From the NCBI GenBank assembly GCA_034190245.1, contig JAXHTJ010000001.1:7597-71596 (forward strand): DNA of 64,000 bases, written 5' to 3'. The stretch is from Halobacteriota archaeon (GTDB lineage Archaea; Halobacteriota; Syntropharchaeia; DAOWMC01). Both the position numbers and the translations under genes were made by a program. Numbering within the stretch: position 1 is the first letter of the stretch; each line of letters opens with the position of its first letter. The notes below the pieces were generated by a model. That model saw only the letters and a list, made by a program, of their open reading frames with translations. It was not told where the DNA came from and did no database searches. Below, piece after piece: positions 1-64,000 of this stretch.

Positions 1-2921
1 TTCGTTATTTTCTACCCTAACCGAAACATCTGTCGTCTCACCGAGATAAAGATCAGTTGGGGGCGTATCATCGCCTTCTGAGTCGAATACATAGATCGAT
101 GTCGATTTTTCCTTTGTAACAACCGAGACAGGCTCTATCTTTACATCATCCATCCAAACGGTCACAGGGAAGTTTTTAGACCATTCCTTTGCGTATAGGC
201 GCAAATCAAGTCTATTTTTTCCCTGATCCAGCGTAATGGGAATCTGAATCTGCTGCCACTCCTCATCCCCGGCTACATCATCTTCCCAGATAACGATACC
301 ATTTAGCAAAGCCTGCTTGAATAAGACTCCCTCTGAACGGTTTATCTTGTAAGAGTCGATCATCTTGAAGGATAGAGCTGCCAAACCTTCATCTGATTCT
401 ATCTCCTGAGATATCCCTCCATAATACCCTTCTTCAATTATTGTTTCTGATGGGTACTCCACCTGGTACAGACTCTCTGGAAGGGCCCTGAGTTCAATAT
501 CCAGATATACTATCTGACCGCTCTTTATGGTAAACTCTATCTCGTCGGCGTATATACTTGGCAGCACATTCAACCATAGGTGTCCAGAAGCAACTTCTAA
601 CTCATAATATCCGCTTCCATCTGTTATCGTCGATTCTTCGTACTTGAAGCGATCGGTTACATGGATCTCTACACCAGGAAGCATTGTGCCATTGTAAGAG
701 ATGTATCCGCTGATTGTTGATGGTGGTGGAACCGGATTGAGCGTCATATTCACCGTCTTACTTTCAAGATAATCGACATTGAACTCGTTTTCGTTCCAGA
801 AGTATCCACCTTTGTTTGCTCTCAAAACCATCTCTCCCGCTATGATGTTTAACTCATAATAACCCGTTGAATTGGTACGTGTTCGGGCGCGATATCCGCT
901 TGCAGTCACACCTACATCTGCATCCGGGATAAAAGCACCGGTTCTATTGTCATATATATATCCTCTAACTATCGATCTTTCAGGCTCCAATCTCACATCG
1001 CCACTCGCCAATCCCGAGAACTCGAACCTTTCCTTTTTTGACATGTAACCATCTGCATCGGCCGAGATATATGACGATCCTGCAATTATTCTCGTCTCGA
1101 AGTAACCCTTCCGGTCAGTTGTCAGCTGCTTTTCAAAACCGTAACCACTGGTAATCTTGATACTAGCGTTTGGGATGGGTGAACCCGTCACATTATCTAT
1201 GGCATACCCCTTTACAATAGCAAGCCATTCCGGTAATCCGGCAGTTTCGTCATCAGCTTTTGCAATCGAAAAAAGATTAGATAGTAAACCAAAAGCACCC
1301 TTCCCGGGAATAACATACGTCTTAGGTTCAAGCCCTATATCAACGGAGGAGTTACCAGATATGTAAAACTCAAAGCTCTCTTCAATGTAACCATCTGCTC
1401 TTGTTGTTATTATAGACTGTCCAGGTAGTGCTACCATCTCAAAGTAGCCTATATCATTGGTTGTTGTACTTAAATCATAGCCAGAAGCCAAAATATTAAC
1501 CTCTGCGTCCGGTATCGGTAAACCTGTCATGTAATCTGTAACGCGCCCTTCAACAACATACAACCACTCCGTCGATTCGAGGGGCAGAGTCTCAATTGTC
1601 AAGTTCAGCAGGTATAACTCTTCCAGAGTCAAATTGAATGGCATTTCAGTTATTAGAGGTTCATTTATTATGTTCAGGAGAAATTTCTCGTCCTCTGCTA
1701 CACTCACATTAACGTAACTTCTTTCATAGCCGTTAGCACGTGACTCGATCCAGAAGTGGTCGGCAATTGTCTGCATCTCATAGTATCCGCTTTCGTTTGT
1801 TGTATTAGACCTCTCATATCCATAGCGGTTTGTGATACTTATGCGAGCGTTCTCTACTGGGAGGCCGGTCTGATTATCAGTGACATAACCGAAGATCGTT
1901 GAATTCTCCGAAAAAGAGTAAAATTTTGTGAGATGCCCCCTGAAGTTAAGTGAGTTATTTGTCATAGTCCAACCTCCTATCCGTTCCATATCCTCGTTTC
2001 TTATCTGTGGCAGCTCTGAAAGGGCATACGCTTCAAGTATTTTCAGGTTATCGTAGTCTATACTGGAATCCACCCACAGGTGTACAGATCTGTATGGTTC
2101 TTGTAGATCATCCTTGTACAATAATAACTGAAGTTTAAGGTTTTTACCAACATGTTTTGGGGTGAATGATAGGTTATGAACCCATTTCCAGTCATGATCG
2201 AGCCAAAATTCTTCTCGATTGAGCAGATAATCTTCGAGTCTCACCTCGAGCGTATAGTTTGCTGGAGCATGTTCATAGTTCTCCACGCCGACTGTGATCG
2301 TTGTGGGTTCCAAAAGATATAGGTCGGTTGGGTAATTCTCCGCCTTGCCGCCCTCGCCAAGAATATAAAGGGTTGTGAACTTCTCCTCCTCAAACGTTAT
2401 CTTAGCAAAGACGAGTATACCGCTTGCTATGATTATCGATCCTACAAGTGCTATTATAAGTGCCTTCTCAATCTCGGTTGGCTCCTCTGTATCCCTTCTT
2501 ATCAAGTCTATAAAATTTGAGACAGTTAAAAGATTGAAGGTGAACCTCTCATCTTTCGGGGTCCTCCACCTAACAATGATGGTGATGAGCACAAGAATGA
2601 GAGTTATCATTGATAGCGACAGAACAAGGGGCATGGGTCTGAAACGCCACTGTGTGACGCTAATGGCAAACCCATCGAAGACAAATATAGCGATGCTCAT
2701 TCCTATTCCCAGAGTGAACCTCTCGATTCCACTGAGGTCACTTCTTCTCGGAAACATAGCAGATATTAGCGCATATCCCGGTAGGAATAGCAAGATCGGT
2801 AGAGAGAATATAATCCGGAGTGGAGTTTGATTGAAAGGAGAAACAAGAGTGAATAATATGGAGAGCGCCATAAATAGAATTACAAGCACCAGATCTGATG
2901 ATAACCCGTATATCCATTTTG
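1..2921 (-). CDS. Large surface/membrane protein, partial (C-terminus lies before window start). N-terminal multi-TM segment resembling DUF1616, followed by many ~100-aa carboxypeptidase-regulatory-like (CarboxypepD_reg / Cna-B-like) repeats
   Basis: Reverse-strand translation from ATG at 2921 (MANSKWIYGLSSDLVLVILFMALSILF...) runs open to position 1. It shows repeated units of the type xTGxPIxNAxVxIxxSGYxxxxxTDxxGYYE. This ORF is absent from the supplied ORF track because its stop lies outside the window. Confidence 0.55.
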
Positions 2922-3014
2922 AGTTAGCCATTTTTATATCTGTTGTGTTCAATTCTATAAATGCTTTTTTAACGAGAGGGTCTATCTGGGGGTCTTAAAT
3001 CAAAGGATGAGTCC

Positions 3015-4790
3015 TCAGTCCATAAGCCTCTTGATCGAGTATAAACCGGCACCCATGATGAGCAGCACCAATGCCAAAACAATGAATATTGAGGTGTCCT
3101 TGCCACCACCGTCCCCATTCCAATCGTGCATAAAAACTTGCGTAAAGTACTCTGAGACATCCTGATTTTCAACTATAACACCCACTTCCCTGCTGTATGT
3201 TGGACTGTCCTTATTCCAGTTGATGCTCGATACCAGGGTCTTGTCTCCATCAACGATCACCCCTTTTGTGTGCACTTTATCCAGATCTAATTCACCATTT
3301 ATCAGTCTTCCCTCCAGATTGAGCCCCTCATCTTCTGCTATGCCGTTGACGTATGAGACCGTTTCGGTGTTGGAGGCCACATTGTACCAGCTACTGTCCA
3401 AGAGTATCTTCACCTCGCAGCCCCTTCTTGCCGCATCAATCGCCGATTCCAGATATAAATTTGGTTCATCATCCCACTCCTTATGGACGTAAAGCTGCTC
3501 GATGTAAACACTCTTCTTTGCGGAGTTCATCAATCCCAGGACAGTCTCGTTCAAAAGAGAGGTATCCGGGGCAATTACGGGCGTGACTGTAAAATCACCC
3601 GTTATCTCCCTTGATTCGAAGATGGGATCATATCTTCCTCCTTGAATCGTTATTTGTGGAATGTCCCTGTCAAATTCTTTGGCAGGTATAATGTCATCAC
3701 CCACCCAATCGTCATTAAAAAGTTCAGTAAAGTAGGATGTGACATCTGCATCCTCAATTGCGATACCCCAGCCTCTACTCCCGAATGTGCTATCAATCGG
3801 CACTCCGGTGTATTTGAAGTTCTCGGTGAGGATGAGTGTTGTCACGTTGTCGATGAGCATGTACTTTGCATGGATGAATCTGTATCTATCGGGCATTGTT
3901 TCGTTCCCACGCATGAAGGATACAGACCCATTGGCACCTACAATCTCGCTTGCAATGAAGAGTTCTTCATCCTCGATGCCTCCGATAGGCCCTCCTTCCA
4001 GCAAGACTCTAACACTGATGCCCCGTTTCGTGGCGTCGATTACGTGCTCCATGATCTTTAGATTGTCAAACTCGTATACGCATATATCAAGAGAGGACTT
4101 CGCAGCGTCTATCGCCCCTGTGACTTCTTTGTAACTGCTGTCAGGAGAGACAAAGACTCTCACGTCTCCATGGAAATCGAATCTCTCAACCGGGAACCGG
4201 GACTGCCCCAGATAATATATCCGCGACTCATCCCAATCACTCTTTGAATCGGTATCAACGACTCCATTTCTCTGAAGGATCTCGCCTTCGTGCGCCTTCC
4301 CTATGGTTGGACCGGACCAACCCTGCCCGATGTATTCGGAGTCTCCATAAATAACAACGTCGATCAAATTTCCATCGCTATCAAACAGTAGCAGTTCATC
4401 CCCGTCATTACTGAGGCGGATAGTACCTCCAGGCATCCGGGGGGTGTCTGGACTCGGGTCCGAAACGTACACAAAATCTGCAGTCTTTTTACTCTGCTCA
4501 CTGAATCGGAGGGCGTTCCTTGTGATATATATCGTCTTTTCTCCTTCGATAAAAGTGCCTTGGGGGAAGGATATGTTGGCTTCGATATCGCTGATTGCCC
4601 AGCCTGATATCTCGATCGAATAATTGGTTGGATTGCAGATCGCTATGTATTCGTCCAAGTCATTCTTGGTGTAGGTGTTCGGATAAAACTCGAATATTAT
4701 CGGATGATTAACTGAAGCAGAGGCCACTTGAAAAGACAACGGCAATAGCAGGAGAATGATTATAACTTGGGTAGAGTATCTTCCCTTCAA
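3015..4790 (-). CDS. Secreted phospholipase-D-superfamily protein with N-terminal lamin-tail-like (LTD) domain and C-terminal TM anchor
   Basis: Signal-peptide-like N-terminus (LLLLPLSFQVASA). Two HKD motifs (HAKYMLIDNVT; HTKGVIVDGDKTLVSSINWN). C-terminal hydrophobic tail IFIVLALVLLIMGAGLYSI. Confidence 0.65.
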   Translation of the reverse strand: MKGRYSTQVIIILLLLPLSFQVASASVNHPIIFEFYPNTYTKNDLDEYIAICNPTNYSIEISGWAISDIEANISFPQGTFIEGEKTIYITRNALRFSEQSKKTADFVYVSDPSPDTPRMPGGTIRLSNDGDELLLFDSDGNLIDVVIYGDSEYIGQGWSGPTIGKAHEGEILQRNGVVDTDSKSDWDESRIYYLGQSRFPVERFDFHGDVRVFVSPDSSYKEVTGAIDAAKSSLDICVYEFDNLKIMEHVIDATKRGISVRVLLEGGPIGGIEDEELFIASEIVGANGSVSFMRGNETMPDRYRFIHAKYMLIDNVTTLILTENFKYTGVPIDSTFGSRGWGIAIEDADVTSYFTELFNDDWVGDDIIPAKEFDRDIPQITIQGGRYDPIFESREITGDFTVTPVIAPDTSLLNETVLGLMNSAKKSVYIEQLYVHKEWDDEPNLYLESAIDAARRGCEVKILLDSSWYNVASNTETVSYVNGIAEDEGLNLEGRLINGELDLDKVHTKGVIVDGDKTLVSSINWNKDSPTYSREVGVIVENQDVSEYFTQVFMHDWNGDGGGKDTSIFIVLALVLLIMGAGLYSIKRLMD

Positions 4791-6875: not shown

Positions 6876-7388
6876 ATGGCAAGAGGACCTAATTATCGAG
6901 TTCCATTCAGGAGAAGAAGAGAGGGCAAGACGAACTATAGGAGACGGATCAAGCTACTTGTCTCAAACAAGCCCAGATTGGTGATAAGGAAGAGTAATAA
7001 ACACATAAGTTTGCAACTTGCGATACCGAAGAACGAAGGGGATGAGACTTTACTGACTGTCAGATCCACTGACCTTGCGAAGTATGGTTACAAAGGCAAC
7101 ACAGGAAATATACCTGCTGCTTATCTGACAGGGTTGTTATTTGGGATGAAAGCAGTATCTGATGGGTACAAGGAAGCAATTCTGGACATTGGACTGCAGA
7201 CATCGACACCGGGTTCACGTATTTATGCGGCATTGAAGGGTGCTATAGACGGGGGGATTGTTGCCCCATGTGATGAATCTGTGTTGCCAAATGAAGAACG
7301 AATTAAGGGAGATCATACATCTATTGCTGATCTACCCGATCATTTTGATTCTGTGAAGGGAAAAATATTGGACGTGTTTGGGGTGTAG
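6876..7388 (+). CDS. rpl18: 50S ribosomal protein L18 (uL18)
   Basis: [24 protein letters not shown]… is the canonical archaeal uL18 start. The gene is 3 nt downstream of L19e. Confidence 0.9.
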
Positions 7389-7389
7389 A

Positions 7390-8013
7390 ATGGTTCAAGA
7401 GTATGAAGAAGATTGGATTCCAAAAACCAGACTGGGTAGAATGGTAACTGAAGATAAAATTACCACCATAGAGGAGGCATTAGAATCAGGAATGGCGCTA
7501 AGGGAATATCAGATCGTCGATTTACTTGTGCCTGAACTGAGGGACGAGATACTTGATATAAATATGGTCCAGCGGATGACTGACTCTGGAAGGAGGGTGA
7601 AGTTCAGAGTTGTGGTTGCAGTTGGAAATGAGGATGGTTTCGTCGGAGTGGGGCAGGCGAGAGACGCCCAGGTCGGCCCTGCGATTAAAAAAGCGATAAA
7701 TGATGCAAAGTTGAACCTGATCAATGTTAAGCGGGGCTGTGGTTCCTGGGAGTGTGATTGTGAGCATGGGCACTCCATTCCATTTGAGGTGACCGGCAAA
7801 TGCGGTAGTGTTCAAGTTACCCTGAAGCCAGCACCGATGGGACTCGGTCTTGCATGTGGTGAGACGGCGAAGAAGGTTCTTGAATTGGGTGGTATAAAAG
7901 ATATCTGGGCAAAGTCCAAAGGGAGGACGCGTACCACACTGAACTTCGCAAAGGCGACGTTTGATGCATTGAAGATGACGACCGCTGTAAAACTCCCGCC
8001 GCAAGCTAAATAA
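7390..8013 (+). CDS. rps5: 30S ribosomal protein S5 (uS5)
   Basis: Carries the dsRBD-like and S5 C-terminal motifs (…[28 protein letters not shown]…). The ATG at 7390 lies 2 nt after the L18 stop; the track's TTG start at 7378 is less likely. Confidence 0.9.
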
Positions 8014-8015
8014 AT

Positions 8016-9173
8016 ATGGAGAAATCAAAAGTTGCACTTGTAAGATGCGAGTCATATGATGAAGGTGAAGTACAAAAGGCTGTCGAAGAAGGGATAGGCC
8101 TTCTTGGTGGGATTGCGAGTTTTATAGAAGCTAATGAGAAGATAGTAATAAAACCGAATCTCCTGTTTGGCGCAAAGCCTGAAAAATGCGTAAACCCCCA
8201 TCCATCCATATTTAAAGCTCTGGGAAACCTGCTAATAGAAGCCGGTGCTGAAGTGTATTGTGGAGATTCTCCCGGGTTTGGAAGATGCGAAAGGCAGATG
8301 GAACGGGCAGGATTGAAGCAGGTGGCCGATGAACTCGGAATAAAACTTGCCGATTTTGATAATGGTAGACCGGTCAGCCATAAAGATGCGCTACTCAATA
8401 AAAGGTTCGTCATTGCAAATGGTGTTCTTGATTCAGATGGCCTCATAAACCTCTCCAAATTGAAGACTCATCAGCTAACAAGACTTACCGGTGCCATTAA
8501 AAACCAGTTCGGCTGTGTTCCCGGTGTCAGAAAGGGTGAACATCACGTGAAGATGCCAGATCCATACGATTTCTCGAAAATGCTCATCGATTTGAACACA
8601 CTCACAAAGGCGCGCTTGTACATAATGGATGCTGTTATAGCAATGGAGGGTAACGGTCCGAGAAGCGGAGATCCAAAGAGGCTGAATGCTCTTTTGTTCT
8701 CAAGTGACCCCATAGCTCTGGATTCTGTCGCCTGCAAGATTGTAGATCTCGATGCAGAAGTTATCCCAACATCAAAGATCGGCGAGAAGGCCGGACTTGG
8801 AACGTATCATTACGAGAATATCGAGATAGTCGGAGATGAAGTAGAATCGTTCGTCGATAAAAGCTTCAATATAATTCGAAAGGCTCCGAGATCGTTCAAG
8901 GGTGGACGATTGAGGGCTTTCATAAGAAATCGAGTATCACCAAGGCCGGTTATAAACGATGAAAAATGTGATATATGTGGAACTTGTGTCAAGATGTGTC
9001 CTGTAGATCCAAAATCTGTCAACTGGCATACGGGTGACAAAAAGATACCACCCACCTATAAGTATGACCGATGTATCCGCTGTTATTGCTGCCAGGAGTT
9101 GTGCCCTGAGGGTGCTATCACTGTTGAGAATACCCTGCTTGGCAGAGTGGCGGAAAGGATCTTGTTAAGGTGA
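8016..9173 (+). CDS. DUF362-domain protein with C-terminal 2x[4Fe-4S] ferredoxin domain
   Basis: 385-aa protein whose C-terminus carries CDICGTCVKMCP and CIRCYCCQELCPEGAI cysteine clusters. The N-terminal region is DUF362-like. Confidence 0.6.
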   Translation: MEKSKVALVRCESYDEGEVQKAVEEGIGLLGGIASFIEANEKIVIKPNLLFGAKPEKCVNPHPSIFKALGNLLIEAGAEVYCGDSPGFGRCERQMERAGLKQVADELGIKLADFDNGRPVSHKDALLNKRFVIANGVLDSDGLINLSKLKTHQLTRLTGAIKNQFGCVPGVRKGEHHVKMPDPYDFSKMLIDLNTLTKARLYIMDAVIAMEGNGPRSGDPKRLNALLFSSDPIALDSVACKIVDLDAEVIPTSKIGEKAGLGTYHYENIEIVGDEVESFVDKSFNIIRKAPRSFKGGRLRAFIRNRVSPRPVINDEKCDICGTCVKMCPVDPKSVNWHTGDKKIPPTYKYDRCIRCYCCQELCPEGAITVENTLLGRVAERILLR

Positions 9174-9829: not shown

Positions 9830-11500
9830 ATGCAAGATATAAAAGACCTCATCGAGAGGTATGCGCTGCAGAACGCTGTTAAATATGGATCAACACCAAA
9901 AGTAGATGCAGTTATAAAGAAGCTTCTGGGAGAGCACAAAGATCTGCGCCCGAGAGCAAAAGAGATCATACCGATAGTCCGAGAAGAGCTTGGTAAGATA
10001 GAGGATATGAGTGCCTCTGAGTGTGCGGATCGCCTGAAGGCAATCGCTCCCGAACTACTTGAAGAGCTAAGCGAAGCAAAAGAGCAGAAGAAGGGGCTAC
10101 CCGATCTGAAGGTCGATGGTGATGTGGTTATGCGATTTGCACCCAATCCGAACGGCCCACCAACGCTCGGGAGTGTCAGAGGAATCATAATAAATTCAGA
10201 GTATGCAAAAAGATACGATGGGAAGTTCATCATCCGATTTGACGATACCGACCCTCAGACCAAAAGGCCGTTGATAGAGGCTTATGAGTGGTATCTTGAG
10301 GATTGTGAGTGGCTTGATGCAAAACCCGATGAAGTTGTAATCGCTTCTGACAGAATTGATCTTTATTATGAGTATGCAAGAACTCTGATAGACATGGGAA
10401 AAGCGTACGTCTGTTTCTGCTCCGGAGAGGAATTTAAGAGTTACAAGAACTCGGCAAAAGCGTGTCCGCACCGGAATTATGTCCCTGATGAAAATCTAAA
10501 GCAATGGGATGAGATGTTGGCCGGTGGTTACGAGGAGAAGGAAGCCGTGCTCAGGATCAAAACAGATATTGAAAACCCAAATCCTGCCCTTAGGGACTGG
10601 GTCGCTTTCAGGATAGTGAAAGCAACACATCCAAGGACGGATGATAGGTATATTGTCTGGCCGATGCTCGATTTTGAATCTGCAATAGAGGACCATATCC
10701 TGAGTGTTACACACATCATACGCGGTAAGGATCTGAGAGACAGCGAGAGAAGACAGCGATTTTTGTATGATCATCTCGATTGGGAGTATCCGAAGACGAT
10801 TCATTGGGGCCGGATAAAGATTCACGAGTTTGGCAAGTTCAGCACATCCTCTCTTAGGGAAGGAATCGAGAAGGGGGAGTATACAGGTTGGGATGACCCA
10901 AAACTGCCCACTCTGCGCGCTTTGAAGAGAAGGGGGATCCAACCCCTGGCCATACGAAATTTTATGATAAGTTTTGGGGTTGGGGAGACCGATATAAGCC
11001 TGAGTCTCGAGACTTTGCATGCAGAGAATAAAAAGGTGGTGGATCCGATAGCAAATAGGTACTTCTTCGTCTGGGATCCTGTCGCAGTGGTTATTGAAGG
11101 GGGGAGGACGGTTGCATACCCACCGGTTCATCCAAGTAAGAAGGAACGCCGTGAGATCAAACTGGGATCGGAACTGCTCATCTGTAAAAAGGATGCATCA
11201 ACTCTCTCTTCAGGTGACAGGGTGAGACTCAAAGATCTATATAACATAGAAATCACGAGCCCGAGTCCTATGAAGGCGAAATTCATAAGTGATGAGCCCG
11301 GTAAGGAGAAGATAATACACTGGGTCCCTTCTGACGGGATAAAGGTCAGAGTGATCTCTTCCGATGGGGATATGAGCGGTATAGGTGAGCCATTGATACG
11401 AAAAGAGGTGGGGAATGTTGTTCAGTTTGAAAGATTCGGTTTTGTCAGGATAGATTCAGTTACAGAAGACGGAGTTGTCGCATATTTTGCTCATAGATAA
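9830..11500 (+). CDS. gltX: Glutamyl-tRNA synthetase (archaeal/eukaryal-type GluRS)
   Basis: 556-aa class I aaRS with HIGH-like FAPNPNGPPTLGS and KMSKS-like region, in the archaeal GluRS architecture. Confidence 0.88.
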   Translation: MQDIKDLIERYALQNAVKYGSTPKVDAVIKKLLGEHKDLRPRAKEIIPIVREELGKIEDMSASECADRLKAIAPELLEELSEAKEQKKGLPDLKVDGDVVMRFAPNPNGPPTLGSVRGIIINSEYAKRYDGKFIIRFDDTDPQTKRPLIEAYEWYLEDCEWLDAKPDEVVIASDRIDLYYEYARTLIDMGKAYVCFCSGEEFKSYKNSAKACPHRNYVPDENLKQWDEMLAGGYEEKEAVLRIKTDIENPNPALRDWVAFRIVKATHPRTDDRYIVWPMLDFESAIEDHILSVTHIIRGKDLRDSERRQRFLYDHLDWEYPKTIHWGRIKIHEFGKFSTSSLREGIEKGEYTGWDDPKLPTLRALKRRGIQPLAIRNFMISFGVGETDISLSLETLHAENKKVVDPIANRYFFVWDPVAVVIEGGRTVAYPPVHPSKKERREIKLGSELLICKKDASTLSSGDRVRLKDLYNIEITSPSPMKAKFISDEPGKEKIIHWVPSDGIKVRVISSDGDMSGIGEPLIRKEVGNVVQFERFGFVRIDSVTEDGVVAYFAHR

Positions 11501-59623: not shown

Positions 59624-60592
59624 CTACCACCCAAGGAGTCGTTCGAAGAATTCCGTGATTGGAGTTACTATTGTGCTCACTATCTCAGGAAGATAAATGT
59701 CGGATTCTTCTTCCTGGGATTCGGATGTTGGTGAAATAACAACAGTAGGTGTTAACGTTTGATTGAGAGTTGGTTCAATTGTTGGCGTGGATGTTGGAGT
59801 TGGTGTAGCCGTTGGAGTGGCTGTCGGAGTTGGGGTGGGTATTGGTGTAGGAGTTGGTGGGGTTATAGGTGTTGGCGTGGGTGTAGGTATCGGTTTTGCT
59901 CTCACCTTATTTGAGAAATCGCTTTCACCAACGTCATTTACTGCCTTAACCATGTAGTAGTGACTTCTCCTATTTTTTATATTGTCACTGTCATTAAAGG
60001 TGGCCCAATCGGATGATATAATGGCGTGAAGAGTCCGTGTTTGATGGGATAGCCGTCTATAGATCGTGTAACTGGTCACCTTTGAACCACCATCATTTGA
60101 CGAGGGGTCCCAAGCGATTTCTATATAATCATGGCCAACATCCGTTATTGTTAGATTTGTTGGTGGAGATGGAGCTGATGCTGATGTCTTAAAAAAGATA
60201 TCATCTCCGTAACTTATTCCATCAAAATTCAATGCACATGCTCTGAAGTGATAAGTTGTTCCAGGACTCAAACCAGTGATATCTTCACGAAATGAACCTG
60301 GCGATGACATGGATATATTAGCGGTTGAGCATCCATAATATTTCGTTAAGCCATATTCAAACCAAACCTGGCAATCTTCTTGATATTGAAAATCAGAAGG
60401 AACGCCTGTTGAATCAAGATTACCATTCAAAATAGCAGTTGAAGTTGTAATACAAGAGGCATTATCAGTCGTTGCTAGGGGTTTACCAGCTTTTACTAAC
60501 CTTAATGAAGCAGCATTGTCCGATGCATCAACCACCACAATAACTGATAAAACCAATCCCATAAATATGAGTATTGCAAGAATTTTTTTCAT
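59624..60592 (-). CDS. Secreted protein with two fibronectin-type-III-like domains and a long Pro/Thr linker
   Basis: Signal peptide [23 protein letters not shown]. …[11 protein letters not shown]… and …TSYTIYRR… are FN3-like. [33 protein letters not shown] linker is present. Confidence 0.6.
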
Positions 60593-60756
60593 GTGTAGAT
60601 ATACCAATGTATCTTATTTTGTATATATTTTTTGTTAGTCACTATACACCATATCTAACAAAACCTTGCAAAGCATGTTCCAACTCTGGAGGTTGAGTTA
60701 TTAATCACCGTAAAATTTAATATTTATTTATGGCATAATTTATATGGGGTAAGAAA

Positions 60757-60909
60757 ATGATATGTGACATCTGTGGAAAAGAGTTAGAAACTGAGGTTAG
60801 ATCAGTATCTACAGATAGCATAATAACGTGTGATAGGTGCACACGGTGGGCTAAAAAGATAAGCGATGATTATGTGATGGGCTTTGGAAACTCAAGAGGA
60901 CAGGGATAA
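60757..60909 (+). CDS. Small zinc-ribbon protein (50 aa)
   Basis: MICDICGKELETEVRSVSTDSIITCDRCTRWAKK… has a CxxC…CxxC pair. There is an AT-rich TATA-like stretch upstream. It is below the ORF-track length cutoff. Confidence 0.3.
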   Translation: MICDICGKELETEVRSVSTDSIITCDRCTRWAKKISDDYVMGFGNSRGQG

Positions 60910-61127
60910 ATTCCACACTTTTTTGTAACGTCTCTTGGATAAAGTGCTCCAATAGTTGCTTGGGTTAAGTGAGCAACTGCCATCTGACTATCTGCTGTAC
61001 GCACAAATCCATCAAGAGTAAGAGATTCCACGTAAAATGAGAGGATCCACATAACACAGTATGATATCATAACGTGGCTTCATTACAATATTACTCCCAT
61101 ATCCATAGTTCCGATTGATCAGGAGTG

Positions 61128-61565
61128 CTAATATTTTCCGGTCAGCTTTCTTATTCCTCGATGTATCCCATGCATACCGAAGCTGCCTCCAAGATATGTC
61201 ATTGGACAACGTCCGGTAATGCATTCTATTTGAGACTCGCTACATCTCTTTTCTACTTCTGGCGTCTCAGTCCTAAAATGTATCCAAATGTTTTTGATAC
61301 CTTTATCTTCCACTTCTTGCATCACCTTCGCAGGCTCGATCTTCGTCACTCCGATTACTGCACCATCCACACCTTGCGGAAGCTCGGAGACACTATTTAA
61401 GGTACCATCATCTGGCTTATCAGAGATATCAACAACATGGACCTTCTTTTCCCTTTTGGTCAGTTCTTTTATTGTCCACTTCATTGCCGGTTTTGTCTTA
61501 TCAGTAACCACCACAAAACTATTGGCATCCCAGAAAGATTCTTGCTCGGTTGACATTTTTTTCAC
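61128..61565 (-). CDS. CoA-binding-domain protein (YccU-like)
   Basis: …DGAVIGVTK…IWIHF…GRCPMTY… follows the CoA_binding_2 pattern. Confidence 0.5.
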   Translation of the reverse strand: MKKMSTEQESFWDANSFVVVTDKTKPAMKWTIKELTKREKKVHVVDISDKPDDGTLNSVSELPQGVDGAVIGVTKIEPAKVMQEVEDKGIKNIWIHFRTETPEVEKRCSESQIECITGRCPMTYLGGSFGMHGIHRGIRKLTGKY

Positions 61566-61753
61566 CCCACCTATATTCCGGTATGCAATTATTGGTATTG
61601 TTACATCTTATAAGCTTTATGGATCCCTGAAGATTTTCGTCTCTGTACTCATAGGGGTACATCATTGCTTAATATAAAAGCTCAGTCCTTGTTTTTCTTC
61701 ATTGACATAGAGAATAGGGAAGGTATGTGAGATATATTTTACGGAAGCCGAAG

Positions 61754-61906
61754 TTAAAAGACATAACCTTCATAAAACTCTTCAAGAAATGGATTCTTTT
61801 CATGTTCTTCTAATATTTTTCCCATTTTTAATTCATGTGAGAAATAGTTGGTCAGGCTTGTTTTACCGGCGCCTACACATCCCTCGAAGCTTATTATTTT
61901 TGTCAT
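61754..61906 (-). pseudogene. Truncated N-terminal fragment of a P-loop deoxynucleoside/nucleotide kinase
   Basis: MTKIISFEGCVGAGKTSLTNYFSHELKMGKILEEHEKNPFLEEFYEGYVF then a stop. Only the Walker-A region of a dNK-like kinase is present, and it overlaps the 3' end of the upstream gene. Confidence 0.4.
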
Positions 61907-62819
61907 TTGGATTACCGTTCTTATTTTTTGACCTCGTTTTAGAACACGCAAAAATTGATATTAATAAAGCTAAAATTGAAAAGATAACAGTGAAATAAGC
62001 CCAACAGGGGAGGGTTTCTTCTACTCCTTGAGTGGAACTAACAAGTATAGACAGGGCAGCAACTAAAACAGCTATAGCAGTGAAGATTATTCCTATCGAT
62101 GTATCAAGTTTTGTTTCAAATCGGTTTGTTCTTTTTTCAATTTCGTCAATCCGTTGTGCTGCCTCGGTAAATAAAGCACTTTTCAACCAATAATCATAAT
62201 CATCAAGATCCTTACGGCGTGGTGGTCGAGGGAATTTTTTACTCTCTTCCTTAAAAGTGGTAGTCTTGGCAAAATCGATCGTAGCAAGTTTTTCCCCTTT
62301 CTTAATTATAACAGCTTCGTCTGATAGATTATATATTGGACAAAAGAGGTGACCGAACCAACCTGGATCAACTTGAGGGCCACCAACCCAGAGTAAACCT
62401 TTATAAGCCCATTTTACCCTTATGTTCCAACGACCGATAAGGAATCGGGGGATGTTAACTATTTCTCTTGTTTTGATTATAGCAACCTGAAAAGGGGGTA
62501 TGACTATCTTATCATTTTTTTTGTTCAACTCTTCCATTATTCCTCCAAGAGCGTATTTATCCCCTACCGTCAGCTGGTATGAGGCGGCTTTTAAATTTTT
62601 TTTGTCAAATGGATAGATTAACTTAAATTCTTTTACATATCTCTCGATTTCATCGCTCAAAAGTATTCCTGGCTCCCCGTTTGGGTCCTTTGCAGGATCA
62701 GGAAATTTTTCCAGAATATCATCTATAGATAAATGTTCCTCTATTTCCTCCAAAGAATATCTATTTAAAAGTTCATCCAAAGAGAGTTTCTTCAATTTTT
62801 CTGGGTTGACTTTGTTCAT
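61863..62819 (-). CDS. dCTP-deaminase/dUTPase-fold domain protein with N-terminal extension and C-terminal 2-TM tail
   Basis: …ILLSDEIERYVKEFKLIYPFDKKNLKAASYQLTVGD… and …GGPQVDPGWFGHLFCPIYNLSDEAVIIKKGEKLATIDF… match Dcd/Dcd-Dut signature regions. The last ~90 aa contain two hydrophobic helices (IGIIFTAIAVLVAALSILV; YFTVIFSILALLISIFA). Confidence 0.6.
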   Translation of the reverse strand: MNKVNPEKLKKLSLDELLNRYSLEEIEEHLSIDDILEKFPDPAKDPNGEPGILLSDEIERYVKEFKLIYPFDKKNLKAASYQLTVGDKYALGGIMEELNKKNDKIVIPPFQVAIIKTREIVNIPRFLIGRWNIRVKWAYKGLLWVGGPQVDPGWFGHLFCPIYNLSDEAVIIKKGEKLATIDFAKTTTFKEESKKFPRPPRRKDLDDYDYWLKSALFTEAAQRIDEIEKRTNRFETKLDTSIGIIFTAIAVLVAALSILVSSTQGVEETLPCWAYFTVIFSILALLISIFACSKTRSKNKNGNPNDKNNKLRGMCRRR

Positions 62820-63867
62820 ACTCTACCACCATAGTACTTGTTCTTCTATCAATAAGTTCTTGGTCTGTTGGTCCAGTCCCAACAAAATCTATTTTTATCC
62901 CTATCTCCAATTCTAACCACGAGATAAACTCTTTAGTTTTTTGTGTTAACCCACTATAATCCTTCACACCTTTATTTTTATAATCTAAATAATCTACCCC
63001 CATCAAGGCTATTTCAGTTGGCCTGTTTACGGAGATGGCCTTTTTCACGATATCAAGATCGAATCTTGCTACCCTACGTAGTTTTTTGGTTACTGATGTG
63101 AATTCTTGAATTTCATAGGGATAACCACTTTCGCACTGGATAGTTTTCCAGTTAATTTCTTTTGGAAGGGGACCTGAGTTCCCACTTACTCTGATTGGAA
63201 ATGTCCGTATCACCATAACAATATCAGAAACCACTAACGGACTTATTCCGACTTCACTCAAAAACCCTGAAACTGTAGTATCTCTACTGGTGGCATAGGG
63301 GTAATAAGGGCTATGGTATAAAGACAAGCCAAACCCTTGTGTTCCTTCAATGACAATTTTTTTACCATTCAAATGATGATTCATTACGTTTTGAGAAACA
63401 CAAGTTAGATACGGCTTTAATTCGGGGACATCCCTAGCTAACTTAAAATCACCCCCTCTTAAAACCCGATTGGCAACAGCAATACCTGTGCCTGTGCATG
63501 TAGAGCCAATTCTCTTGTTAAGTTCCAATTCCTCTTCTTTTTGGTTATACTCTTCATTTATAATAGCTGCATTAGAATCTATTCCCAATCTATCTGGACT
63601 TAGGTCGAATGTGTCTATCTCCTCAAATAAAAGATCGAGGTCTATAAGGCAACCTGCTGCAAGGAGCAGTTTCGTATTATCATTTACTACTCCTGCAGGG
63701 ACGGATCTAAGTACTATCTGTCCATGATTTATGGTAATAGTATGCCCTGAGTTCGGCCCTCCACATCTAACCGCTACATCAAATCCTTTTTCACGGCACA
63801 TATAGGCCGTTATTTTACCTTTTCCTTCAGATCCAAACTGTCCACCCACAACTACTTTAACAGGCAA
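62773..63867 (-). CDS. Adenylosuccinate-synthetase-family protein (short archaeal/PurZ-like type) with noncanonical P-loop
   Basis: MPVKVVVGGQFGSEGKGKI…GGPNSGHTI…GTQGFGLSLY…VTKKLRRVARFDL…. Canonical PurA has GxQWGDEGKGK, whereas here the Asp is Ser and Trp is Phe. Start is TTG at 63865-63867 with an AGGTGA RBS. Confidence 0.7.
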   Translation of the reverse strand: MPVKVVVGGQFGSEGKGKITAYMCREKGFDVAVRCGGPNSGHTITINHGQIVLRSVPAGVVNDNTKLLLAAGCLIDLDLLFEEIDTFDLSPDRLGIDSNAAIINEEYNQKEEELELNKRIGSTCTGTGIAVANRVLRGGDFKLARDVPELKPYLTCVSQNVMNHHLNGKKIVIEGTQGFGLSLYHSPYYPYATSRDTTVSGFLSEVGISPLVVSDIVMVIRTFPIRVSGNSGPLPKEINWKTIQCESGYPYEIQEFTSVTKKLRRVARFDLDIVKKAISVNRPTEIALMGVDYLDYKNKGVKDYSGLTQKTKEFISWLELEIGIKIDFVGTGPTDQELIDRRTSTMVVEYEQSQPRKIEETLFG

Positions 63868-63869
63868 AG

Positions 63870-64000
63870 CTACTCACCTATACATAAATGAAGATCTGCC
63901 ATTTTAAACTTTGGCATAGGTTTAAGATTTGGTATAATCAGATACCTTTCCTCTTCATTTCCTAAAGCTTCATAATCCCCTGCAAGATAAAAATATCCAA
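63870..64000 (-). CDS. 3' end of an upstream ORF (partial), same strand as the PurA-like gene
   Basis: Open frame …ERYLIIPNLKPMPKFKMADLHLCIGE* whose stop overlaps the PurA-like RBS. Confidence 0.3.
   Translation of the reverse strand, partial: GYFYLAGDYEALGNEEERYLIIPNLKPMPKFKMADLHLCIGE

Follow-up and report, generated by a model that had tools for sequence, protein, structure and literature searches.

What is a homolog of adenylosuccinate synthetase (PurA) that has lost the catalytic aspartate of that enzyme doing in an AT-rich array of an archaeal chromosome, next to a dCTP-deaminase-like protein with a membrane tail? The question is raised by the end of a 64,000-nt stretch of a Halobacteriota genome (positions 7,597 to 71,596 of the forward strand of JAXHTJ010000001.1), which as a whole is called the window here and whose own numbering is used for all positions. 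The array is cut by the window edge, and a 7.6-kb Logan contig, L001, which is identical to window positions 60343..64000 and runs 3.9 kb past the edge, shows that it belongs to a cassette of four genes. The region is the downstream part of this cassette, which is horizontally acquired and self-contained, occurs in many archaea and bacteria and is not found on viral contigs. Its second gene belongs with PurZ, which to our knowledge has been known only as a phage enzyme for replacing adenine with 2-aminoadenine. A sequence-only reading of the window had listed three minus-strand open reading frames (ORFs), all of which were found. It had also pointed to the DNA beyond position 64000 as a place to check for integrase or viral genes. 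L001 has none there and instead holds gene 1, a nuclease gene and the largest of the cassette, which that reading overlooked because it lies mostly beyond the window. The features of the array are the following.

63870..65525 (L001 2405-4060), minus strand, mostly outside the window: gene 1, helix-hairpin-helix (HhH) plus DEDDy exonuclease plus RuvC-like DUF429 nuclease, 551 amino acids
63870..64000, minus strand: 3' end of gene 1, last ~43 codons plus stop, continued in L001
62773..63867, minus strand: gene 2, PurZ-group adenylosuccinate-synthetase homolog, 364 amino acids, TTG start (PF00709, E=2e-53)
63814..63846, minus strand: P-loop GGQFGSEGKGK of gene 2, with Ser at the position of the PurA catalytic base Asp13
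61863..62819, minus strand: gene 3, DCD-TM protein (Dcd-like domain with transmembrane helices), 318 amino acids (PF22769 DCD, residues 52-185, E=2.3e-16)
62265..62672, minus strand: Dcd/dUTPase-fold barrel of gene 3, residues ~50-185
61962..62114, minus strand: two predicted transmembrane helices of gene 3, residues 236-254 and 268-286 (Kyte-Doolittle scan)
61754..61951 (ORF; feature 61754..61906), minus strand: gene 4 remnant, deoxynucleoside kinase (dNK)/dTMP-kinase-like P-loop kinase (PF01712, E=5e-5)
61754..64000, strand not applicable: in-window part of the AT-rich island, coinciding with the cassette and running to about 65715 outside the window

The composition of the cassette sets it apart from its surroundings. 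Over the 3,962 bp that reach from the kinase stub to the small ORF preceding gene 1, its GC content is 0.362, whereas 4-kb windows over positions 1-60000 have a mean of 0.430 (standard deviation 0.020, minimum 0.380), none being as low as the cassette. GC at third codon positions is 0.28-0.32 in the cassette genes against 0.36-0.39 in flanking genes, and the flanks show host-like GC (PfkB gene 0.414, Metallophos gene 0.423, CoA-binding gene at 61128..61565 0.429). The AT-rich island is therefore the cassette, and not the entire interval of 60.6-64 kb. The earlier view of the last ~3.4 kb as AT-rich, operon-like and of foreign composition held in substance, and only its boundary had to be moved, from 60.6 kb to about 61.75 kb. 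The stop of gene 1 lies 2 nt ahead of the start of gene 2, genes 2 and 3 overlap by 47 nt, and gene 3 and the gene 4 stub by 44 nt; the two overlaps suggest translational coupling. A small RHH-like ORF upstream of gene 1 (L001 2215-2367) was considered as a further member and dropped, since it has no counterpart in the other loci.

The same arrangement recurs in distant organisms. With the family alignment, 80 cellular loci were obtained from metagenomes, and a scan of viral sequences gave a further 80 loci; the cassette was then counted over 84 cellular loci by profile searches and unbiased clustering of neighbouring ORFs, each denominator being the loci with enough flanking sequence. A gene 1 homolog is present in 44 of 50 loci, a DCD-like gene lies directly downstream of the PurZ-like gene in 60 of 73, and a dNK-like kinase was found in 15 of 43, any other family being limited to 14 loci at most. 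Reciprocally, two of three independently chosen DCD-TM genes on long contigs sit in the cassette, and the third is coupled to a radical-SAM enzyme. The carriers include the Peptococcaceae bacterium of locus L002 (72% identity), a Thermoplasmatales metagenome-assembled genome and the complete chromosome of Lacibacter sp. MH-610, and the host range takes in Bacteroidota, Firmicutes and rhizobial plasmids. Plasmid copies were found in Sinorhizobium, Rhizobium, Agrobacterium, Burkholderia and Ralstonia, several of these plasmids being conjugative. Mis-binning of an archaeal contig was considered for L002, and a flanking protein of that locus resembles bacterial RecJ by eye; the spread across domains is based on Lacibacter, the plasmids and the source names of gene 1 homologs (Archaeoglobaceae, Promethearchaeota, Aminicenantes, Nitrospirae), and not on L002. 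Cultured strains carry the complete cassette (Lacibacter sp. MH-610, NZ_CP116002.1, about 1,019,078-1,023,923) or proteins of it (WP_153529217.1 and WP_208180341.1, from Sinorhizobium medicae ml20 plasmid pMl2), and a variant with DUF7002, described below, occurs on plasmids of cultured Burkholderia thailandensis, Ralstonia solanacearum and Agrobacterium rubi. Since complete cassettes exist in cultured strains, the ideas put forward here are directly testable.

Of the cassette genes, it is gene 2 that has many viral relatives. In 2.9 million viral contigs, the scan gave 316 relatives of the PurZ-like genes, no relative of DCD-TM, and three weak matches of gene 1, confined to the exonuclease; the partners are host-side. 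The viral PurZ loci are without an exonuclease gene, DCD-TM or dNK. In 19 of the 80, a short canonical dUTPase with all motifs and no transmembrane segment lies directly downstream of PurZ; this dUTPase is the counterpart of DutZ in PurZ0 phages, and phage PurZ0/DutZ resembles the cassette in having a gene of the dUTPase superfamily in that place. However, the cassette partner is on the Dcd branch, has a transmembrane hairpin and is missing motifs II and V of dUTPases. DCD-TM was considered as an ortholog of phage DutZ and rejected, since the motifs differ and only the neighbours are analogous. The cassette also has an upstream double nuclease, which the PurZ0 phages do not have, and lacks their DmtZ, DUF5664 and DpoZ, as well as the DatZ and MazZ of the PurZ clusters. 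Compared with the phage Z-genome cluster as a whole (a virus with DatZ, MazZ, DUF550 or DutZ, and usually DpoZ), its context is cellular and no DutZ-type dUTPase is present.

By its signature residues and phylogeny, gene 2 is assigned to the PurZ group. The P-loop GGQFGSEGKGK and a second motif, VTKKLRRVARF (VTGRRRRV in canonical PurA), are as first read from the letters, and a third region reads RVSGNSGP instead of RVGAGP, with two extra residues after RV. In a site-by-site comparison the protein falls on the PurZ side at every position where PurZ and PurA diverge (D13S, G298T, G302K, R303K, R304L and the two-residue insertion), and the catalytic and ligand residues common to both enzymes are all intact (K16, N38, H41, T129, R143, Q224, T239, V273, R305). 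The change at R303 and the insertion after RV have been tied structurally to the loss of 2'-OH recognition and a narrower 2' pocket (PMC8342488). Asp333, which contacts the guanine base of GTP, is kept as in PurZ0 and PurA, and is Asn in the ATP-using PurZ of phiVC8; from this we infer that GTP would be the phosphate donor of gene 2. By analogy with the phage enzymes, we hold it fairly probable that gene 2 carries out PurZ-type chemistry on a guanine nucleotide.

The known relatives of gene 2 differ in what they share with it. Phage PurZ0 (a GTP-dependent 2-aminoadenylosuccinate synthetase; Gordonia phage Archimedes, 7VF6) has the same short PurA architecture, Ser at Asp13, K/N-K-(I/L/V)-R-R in place of G-R-R-R-R, a G-N-S-G insertion after RV and the GTP-base Asp, and it falls in the same clade; gene 2, however, is only 36% identical to it and lies on a cellular chromosome, not in a phage. 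The ATP/dATP-dependent phage PurZ (phiVC8, 6FM1; S-2L, 7ODX) shares the change from Asp to Ser, an altered R303 region and, presumably, chemistry on dGMP, at 34% identity and without the GTP-base Asp in phiVC8. The archaeal short PurA (Pyrococcus horikoshii, 2D7U/5K7X; NF003295) is the most similar to gene 2 (236 bits, 40% identity) and has its length class and its IMP/GMP-phosphate and GTP ligands, but differs in that gene 2 lacks Asp13, has a changed GRRRR motif and the two-residue insertion, stays below the family cutoff and is not among the Asp-type sequences of the tree. Among solved structures the Pyrococcus enzyme (236 bits) is followed by PurZ0 7VF6 (148) and PurZ 6FM1 (136). PHROG 1211, "2-aminooxy adenylosuccinate synthetase", matches gene 2 at 2.5e-70. 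The NCBIfam archaeal PurA model NF003295 gives it 347.9 bits, below its cutoff of 368, and the PurZ model NF038379, which was built on phage PurZ, gives 232.9 bits, below its cutoff of 300.

The substitution of Asp13 by Ser is real, but it is not peculiar to the gene in the window, because Ser or Gly is a trait of the family. Of the 120 best homologs (58-75% identity), every one that could be parsed has one or the other. The 150 nearest representatives at 50% identity comprise 106 with Ser, 7 with Gly and 2 with Asp at this position, the first Asp appearing at rank 102; the wider search returned 857 representatives at E ≤ 1e-30, with Ser or Gly in the nearest ~100 where the motif was readable. 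The 66 cassette members include 50 with Ser and 15 with Gly, and the 73 viral sequences have Ser throughout. A neighbor-joining tree, built from 159 sequences and 331 columns with 200 bootstraps and with E. coli PurA as its root, joins the Ser/Gly sequences, whether cellular or viral and including PurZ0 7vf6 and PurZ 6fm1, all in one clade with bootstrap 92, which leaves out the four Asp-type short PurAs. The link to PurZ that the sequence-only reading had raised is thus upheld by both residues and tree. Tong et al. 2023, in Nat Microbiol, are said to have been the first to discuss archaeal relatives of PurZ0. Four archaeal Ser/Gly sequences inside the PurZ group, at its base, have been described, against 99% conservation of Asp13 in PurA (PMC12884076). 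The origin of PurZ "from archaeal PurA" had rested on such a handful of unexplained sequences, and these belong to a large cellular family. What is new is not the few archaeal Ser/Gly sequences at the base of PurZ, which were already known, but a probable PurZ-type nucleotide conversion in a cellular multi-gene system.

Two viral contigs carry the closest lone relatives of this protein. On L085 (IMG/VR uncultivated virus genome, UViG, 3300021592_000001, 188 kb; 1627-3270 and 9992-11062) the closest viral relative, 58% identical, is a lone gene, and a protein that is PolX-like by eye is encoded 6.7 kb upstream of it; on L086 a relative with 51% identity lies near genes that resemble QueE and dCMP deaminase by eye.

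The protein of gene 3 starts with a helical extension of ~50 residues, followed by the Dcd barrel, a long helix and, at the C-terminus, a membrane hairpin of two helices. The extension, the Dcd domain and the two-helix tail had been read from the letters, and they are borne out by PF22769, the hydrophobicity scan and an AlphaFold2 model. In the model (mean predicted local distance difference test score, pLDDT, 87.9) the helices span residues 215-263 and 272-300, the barrel sitting on a helix of ~50 residues that leads to the helical hairpin. C-terminal transmembrane segments are present in 62 of 63 full-length members of the family. Among solved structures, a Dcd-family dUTPase from Thermococcus pacificus, 8Y1W, comes closest (E=6e-17, TM-score 0.88 over the target, 33% identity). 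Like this enzyme and E. coli Dcd, DCD-TM has the beta-barrel fold and keeps the VDPGW motif; unlike them, it has an extra N-terminal helical bundle and the long helix with the membrane hairpin, and its active site is altered. The position of the Dcd catalytic Glu (E138 in E. coli) is a conserved Pro across 63-66 members, and the RSS phosphate motif is replaced by the family-specific RwN…Y.GLLW; RSS..R, the Ser111/Arg115 motif of Dcd, reads RVK..Y in the window and is variable across the family. Of the five dUTPase motifs, among them II (GRSS) and V (GFGSTG arm), the window protein retains only the motif-III Asp (VDPG), which the family keeps together with the C-terminal-arm residues R198, Y208 and S214. 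Because of the change from Glu to Pro and the loss of the Ser/Arg phosphate motif, DCD-TM cannot be a dCTP deaminase, and the proposal that its Dcd domain depletes dCTP had to be abandoned. As far as is known, dCTP deaminases with an anti-phage function have the fold of zinc cytidine deaminases and not that of Dcd. Since members of the Dcd and dUTPase families form trimers, DCD-TM may plausibly build a threefold stalk that sends six helices into the membrane.

A member of this family that is 52% identical to that of the window, with three predicted transmembrane segments, was found on a 78.9-kb contig (L172, JGI 3300001784; 7213-8897). Its gene is translationally coupled to that of a 262-residue radical-SAM enzyme (CNLNCYYC motif, weak QueE-like match), with neither a PurZ-like nor a nuclease gene closer than 8 kb. 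DCD-TM may thus be able to partner other nucleotide-modifying enzymes.

Gene 1 matches PF13482 RNase_H_2 (2.7e-36) and DUF429. The motifs of both halves, LDIETTGLS, NG..FD and YN..D for the DEDDy exonuclease and GIDL, SIDSPL, ESYPGAAQD and HDE.DA for DUF429, are invariant or nearly so in 40-51 homologs, and its structural matches are PolB exonuclease, diDNase and RuvC. In the DUF429/RuvC-like half, residues 397-427 (L001 3593-3685) hold a nearly invariant cluster of cysteines (C397, C402, C404, C413, C427), which is probably a zinc site, not annotated in Pfam.

The kinase stub at the other end of the cassette is a true deletion of an accessory gene, as judged from the sequence comparison. Only codons 1-46 are homologous to a full-length kinase (208 residues, PF01712 3.9e-26) in L002, with 87% identity in tblastn; nothing downstream of codon 46 matches, an out-of-homology tail leads to the stop, and about 160 codons are gone, in keeping with the truncated dNK overlapping the 3' end of gene 3 that had been noticed before. 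In 15 of 43 other loci the kinase is of full length. Decayed copies were seen elsewhere as well: the PurZ-like gene is split into two ORFs in L003/L007 (7788-8840) and L174 (6961-8053), and DCD-TM is split in L002 (10986-11940). Together with the truncated dNK of the window, the split copies are consistent with dispensable, frequently lost accessory genes.

The cassette also occurs in forms in which one or more partners are exchanged, here called types B and C.

L048 4981-11127 (then dNK and type I HsdM); also L063, L076, L078, L080, L084: type B cassette
L167 6431-8774, L168 5889-8774, L169 5449-7741, L170 5449-7748: type C module, with DUF7002 (PF22531, no literature)

In type B, found in 8 of 13 loci without DCD-TM, a protein of 700-786 amino acids ends in an AAA+ module (best PADLOC match IetA, 1e-16), and gene 1 is a fusion of ~1000 residues, PolX-HhH, pol-beta thumb, PHP, DUF429 and P-loop kinase, its PolX-PHP part taking the place of the exonuclease module. 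Type C was found on plasmids of Burkholderia, Ralstonia, Agrobacterium and Rhizobium; here a fusion of an AAA_18 kinase with a Ser-type PurZ-like enzyme is followed by DUF7002. The N-terminus of DUF7002 (LFHMAE…PSIL.HGLLS) resembles DarT/ADP-ribosyltransferase motifs by eye. Kinases are thus fused or free in the cassettes. On the Sinorhizobium plasmid, the PurZ-like and DCD-TM genes are paired with an HD 5'-deoxynucleotidase-like gene (phrog_318, 9e-59). At L174 3292-4344, and in this one locus only, a gene for a purB-type adenylosuccinate lyase (TIGR00928, 275 bits) lies ~600 nt upstream of the cassette; PurB is the enzyme needed after PurZ.

Genes of known conflict systems and mobile elements lie around several copies. 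A Gabija pair adjoins the Ralstonia copy (GajA 9e-183, GajB 1e-112), the Sinorhizobium plasmid has AbiEii, Phd and a recombinase as neighbours, and the Burkholderia copies a transposase, an integrase and a PDDEXK nuclease. The 133 pooled flanking proteins include 7 integrases, 4 Cas1, 3 type I methyltransferases and 5 mad2. PADLOC-DB v2 has no match for the PurZ-like protein, and gives weak matches to PDC-S44, DEDDh and VakA for genes 1 and 4 and to PycTM/2TM effectors for DCD-TM (1.7e-4).

According to these data, a role of the cassette in host conflict or defence, against viruses or mobile elements, is the best reading of the locus, as the sequence-only reading had suggested for a nucleotide-based system; from the sequence comparisons we would give it a probability of about 0.5. 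Two hallmarks of conflict systems, a patchy distribution across domains and modularity, are present, and a third is suggested by Gabija, Cas1, restriction-modification, toxin-antitoxin and integrase genes as neighbours in several loci. The swapping of modules, seen in the gene 3 slot, the gene 1 exonuclease and the kinases, is typical of such systems. The conflict reading is favoured because DCD-TM is swapped for AAA+ or DUF7002 proteins, because of the architecture of a sensor joined to transmembrane helices, and because catalytic motifs are lost in the Dcd domain. The logic resembles that of Pycsar PycTM and the CBASS 2TM effectors: a nucleotide-converting enzyme, a kinase, a nucleotide-fold domain on transmembrane helices, effectors that can be exchanged and, in several genomes, neighbours of the defence-island kind. 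However, beyond the weak transmembrane matches the cassette has no homology to their cyclases or effectors, it has a nuclease of its own, and its signal molecule is only proposed. In Kongming, a purine-metabolism enzyme and a kinase reportedly make dITP, which is sensed by an inactive protein of the NTP-pyrophosphatase fold.

A specific mechanism, from signal to membrane effector, can be proposed only tentatively. Gene 1 would be a DNA-binding double nuclease, in which a proofreading-type DEDDy 3'-5' exonuclease releases mononucleotides alongside a RuvC-like DUF429 endonuclease, and its breakdown of DNA would supply dGMP. By analogy with PurZ0, gene 2 would use GTP to condense aspartate with (d)GMP, not IMP, yielding N6-succino-2-amino-(d)AMP, which host PurB would turn into a 2-aminoadenine (Z) nucleotide; gene 4, where present, would phosphorylate the product of gene 2. 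Gene 3 would be a trimer-type nucleotide-binding domain of the Dcd/dUTPase fold, without the deaminase Glu or the canonical phosphate motif, placed on a membrane hairpin, and the unusual purine nucleotide would activate this membrane-anchored DCD-TM as receptor and effector at once. Alternatively, the unusual nucleotide may itself be antiviral. The substrate and product of gene 2, the part of gene 1 as substrate supplier, that of gene 3 as sensor and effector, and the defence function itself are what we infer here from the comparisons. For a dNMP (deoxynucleoside monophosphate) from DNA degradation as an immune trigger there is a recent precedent (10.64898/2026.01.15.699771).

Several points weigh against the conflict reading and must be taken into account. 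The copy in the window lies outside any defence island, its neighbours being ordinary metabolic and surface genes, and its truncated kinase means that this copy may be impaired. The counts of defence genes in the flanks are raw, made without a background model and partly from interrelated loci, so the association is suggestive. Gene 2 scores better on the archaeal PurA model (348 bits) than on that of PurZ (233 bits) and is below both curated cutoffs; its tree is a distance-based one with few Asp-type outgroups, and the support of the clade is moderate. The motif-III Asp and the C-terminal arm are kept in DCD-TM, which may therefore be an active dNTP pyrophosphatase with a metabolic role and not a sensor. 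Moreover, the PADLOC matches of DCD-TM to transmembrane effectors could be hydrophobic noise, and PADLOC has no model for genes 2 or 3.

The last possibility can be extended to a cellular version of the phage Z-cluster, in which DCD-TM is an active, membrane-tethered dGTP/dATP pyrophosphatase (functionally comparable to phage DutZ or MazZ) and the source of dGMP for the PurZ-like enzyme; the cell or a mobile element would then make dZTP with the help of the kinase and of PurB from the host, and this would enter DNA, either shielding self or plasmid DNA from restriction or poisoning the replication of an invader, while gene 1 processes DNA. In the PurZ0 phages, PurZ0 is always accompanied by a Dut-fold dATP/dGTP pyrophosphatase (PMC12884076), and the dUTPase of the 19 viral loci occupies the same slot downstream of PurZ. 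The VDPG Asp and arm residues of the DCD domain would fit this reading, as would the recurrent kinases, the deoxynucleotidase-like gene that flanks the Sinorhizobium copy, the purB-like gene 600 nt upstream in L174, the fusion of PolX to gene 1 in type B and the conjugative plasmids among the carriers. However, the phosphate motif RSS and motif V, kept in every DutZ-like protein of the phages, are missing from the DCD domain, a membrane hairpin is left unexplained in an enzyme of the nucleotide pool, and elsewhere the same slot holds an AAA+ ATPase or DUF7002, which are unable to supply dGMP. Moreover, the conserved core has neither a Z-selective polymerase nor the dATP-removing DatZ, and expression of the phage Z-cluster is toxic to E. 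coli (PMC8342488). We regard a metabolic Z-cluster as doubtful.

The other explanations are far less probable. That genes 2 and 3 are the ordinary purA and dcd/dut of the genome in a divergent archaeal form seems highly improbable, even though the best NCBIfam match is the archaeal PurA equivalog (348 bits, 20 below the cutoff), Pyrococcus PurA is the closest of the solved structures, the 64-kb window itself yielded no second purA or dcd, and the source databases call these proteins adenylosuccinate synthetase and dCTP deaminase. Against it, the catalytic Asp13, 99% conserved in PurA (PMC12884076), and the catalytic Glu of Dcd are both gone. The composition of the island is foreign, gene 2 is tightly linked to a nuclease and a transmembrane protein, decayed copies are common, and the same cassette is found in bacteria and on rhizobial, Burkholderia and Ralstonia plasmids, whose hosts presumably have a long-form purA of their own. 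In agreement with the first reading, we therefore hold that these two genes are very probably not housekeeping purA and dcd. A provirus remnant, or a virus-derived Z-genome module, would fit a PurZ that is otherwise a viral enzyme, the lone close relatives on the viral contigs L085 (58%) and L086 (51%), the AT-rich island and the truncated gene. We consider it very improbable, and the earlier suggestion of a provirus-derived module was given up, because the window tail and L001 have no integrase, tRNA, capsid or terminase genes, the flanks are ordinary archaeal chromosomal genes, and the partners of gene 2 are absent from the viral contigs apart from the three weak exonuclease matches, as they are from the viral PurZ loci. 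Finally, gene 2 might act like ToyG of the toyocamycin/sangivamycin pathway in the synthesis of a nucleoside natural product. The same search did find a short PurA homolog in a 7-deazapurine cluster on Rhizobium plasmids, and the DCD-TM relative of L172 is coupled to a radical-SAM enzyme. However, the ToyG-like enzyme keeps the canonical Asp and TGRPRR and has no insertion, unlike gene 2, which was rejected as a ToyG-type 7-deazapurine enzyme on the ground of these signatures, and the cassette has no folE, queC, queD, queE, tailoring or export genes; such a role is hardly credible.

There is a substantial chance that the cassette represents a categorically new family of defence systems. A still more specific proposal, which we consider possible but clearly less likely than not, is a new family of prokaryotic immune systems in which the nuclease of the system acts on damaged DNA or that of an invader and a cellular PurZ converts the dGMP so released into a 2-aminoadenine-type nucleotide. 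This would serve either as an antiviral nucleotide or as an alarm signal, to which exchangeable effectors (the Dcd-fold membrane protein, the AAA+ ATPase, DUF7002) respond; by implication, phages would have taken PurZ from such a host system. If the cassette does make Z-type nucleotides in cells, it would be either a new nucleotide-based immunity or the first cellular Z-nucleotide metabolism, and in either case a concrete source for the phage pathway. In the literature no description was found of the cassette, its nuclease, DCD-TM or the AAA+ and DUF7002 partners, though an earlier mention of the gene context is possible, and no link was found between PurZ-like genes and defence.

The 7-deazapurine cluster mentioned above lies on conjugative plasmids: at L171 5375-12937 (Rhizobium leguminosarum plasmid pRL23b2), and on seven similar plasmids, a toyocamycin/sangivamycin-like cluster comprises folE, the ToyG-like PurA with canonical Asp, purB, queE, an IMPDH-like gene, nitrile hydratase, queC and genes for a HAD protein and a phosphoribosyltransferase (PRTase).

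The rest of the window holds ordinary archaeal chromosomal genes, among them IleRS, a Fae-Hps fusion, a PGF-CTERM surface protein, a Na+/H+ exchanger, BKACE and GNAT. Searches of the window against Rfam, and of the edges of the island for tRNA genes, gave no matches. At 59624..60607 (minus strand), ~1.1 kb from the AT-rich island, lies the gene of a protein, secreted or at the surface, that has an fn3 domain as well as a long linker of Pro-Thr repeats (PTPTPTP…); here the GC content is already 0.39-0.40, below the window mean. Between this gene and the cassette are a 50-residue zinc-ribbon-like ORF (60757..60909, plus strand; weak, E=6e-3) and the gene of a 145-residue CoA_binding_2 protein with host-like GC (61128..61565, minus strand); in the clustering of neighbouring ORFs, neither turned up again next to other copies of the cassette. 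A gene of the PfkB family (ribokinase/ribose-1-phosphate-kinase-like) adjoins archaeal-type cassettes in at least four loci (L001 1055-1969; L006 10062-11147; L010 10040-10975; L174 9085-10009). Since its GC is host-like in L001, this recurrence may reflect a shared insertion site rather than a shared function.

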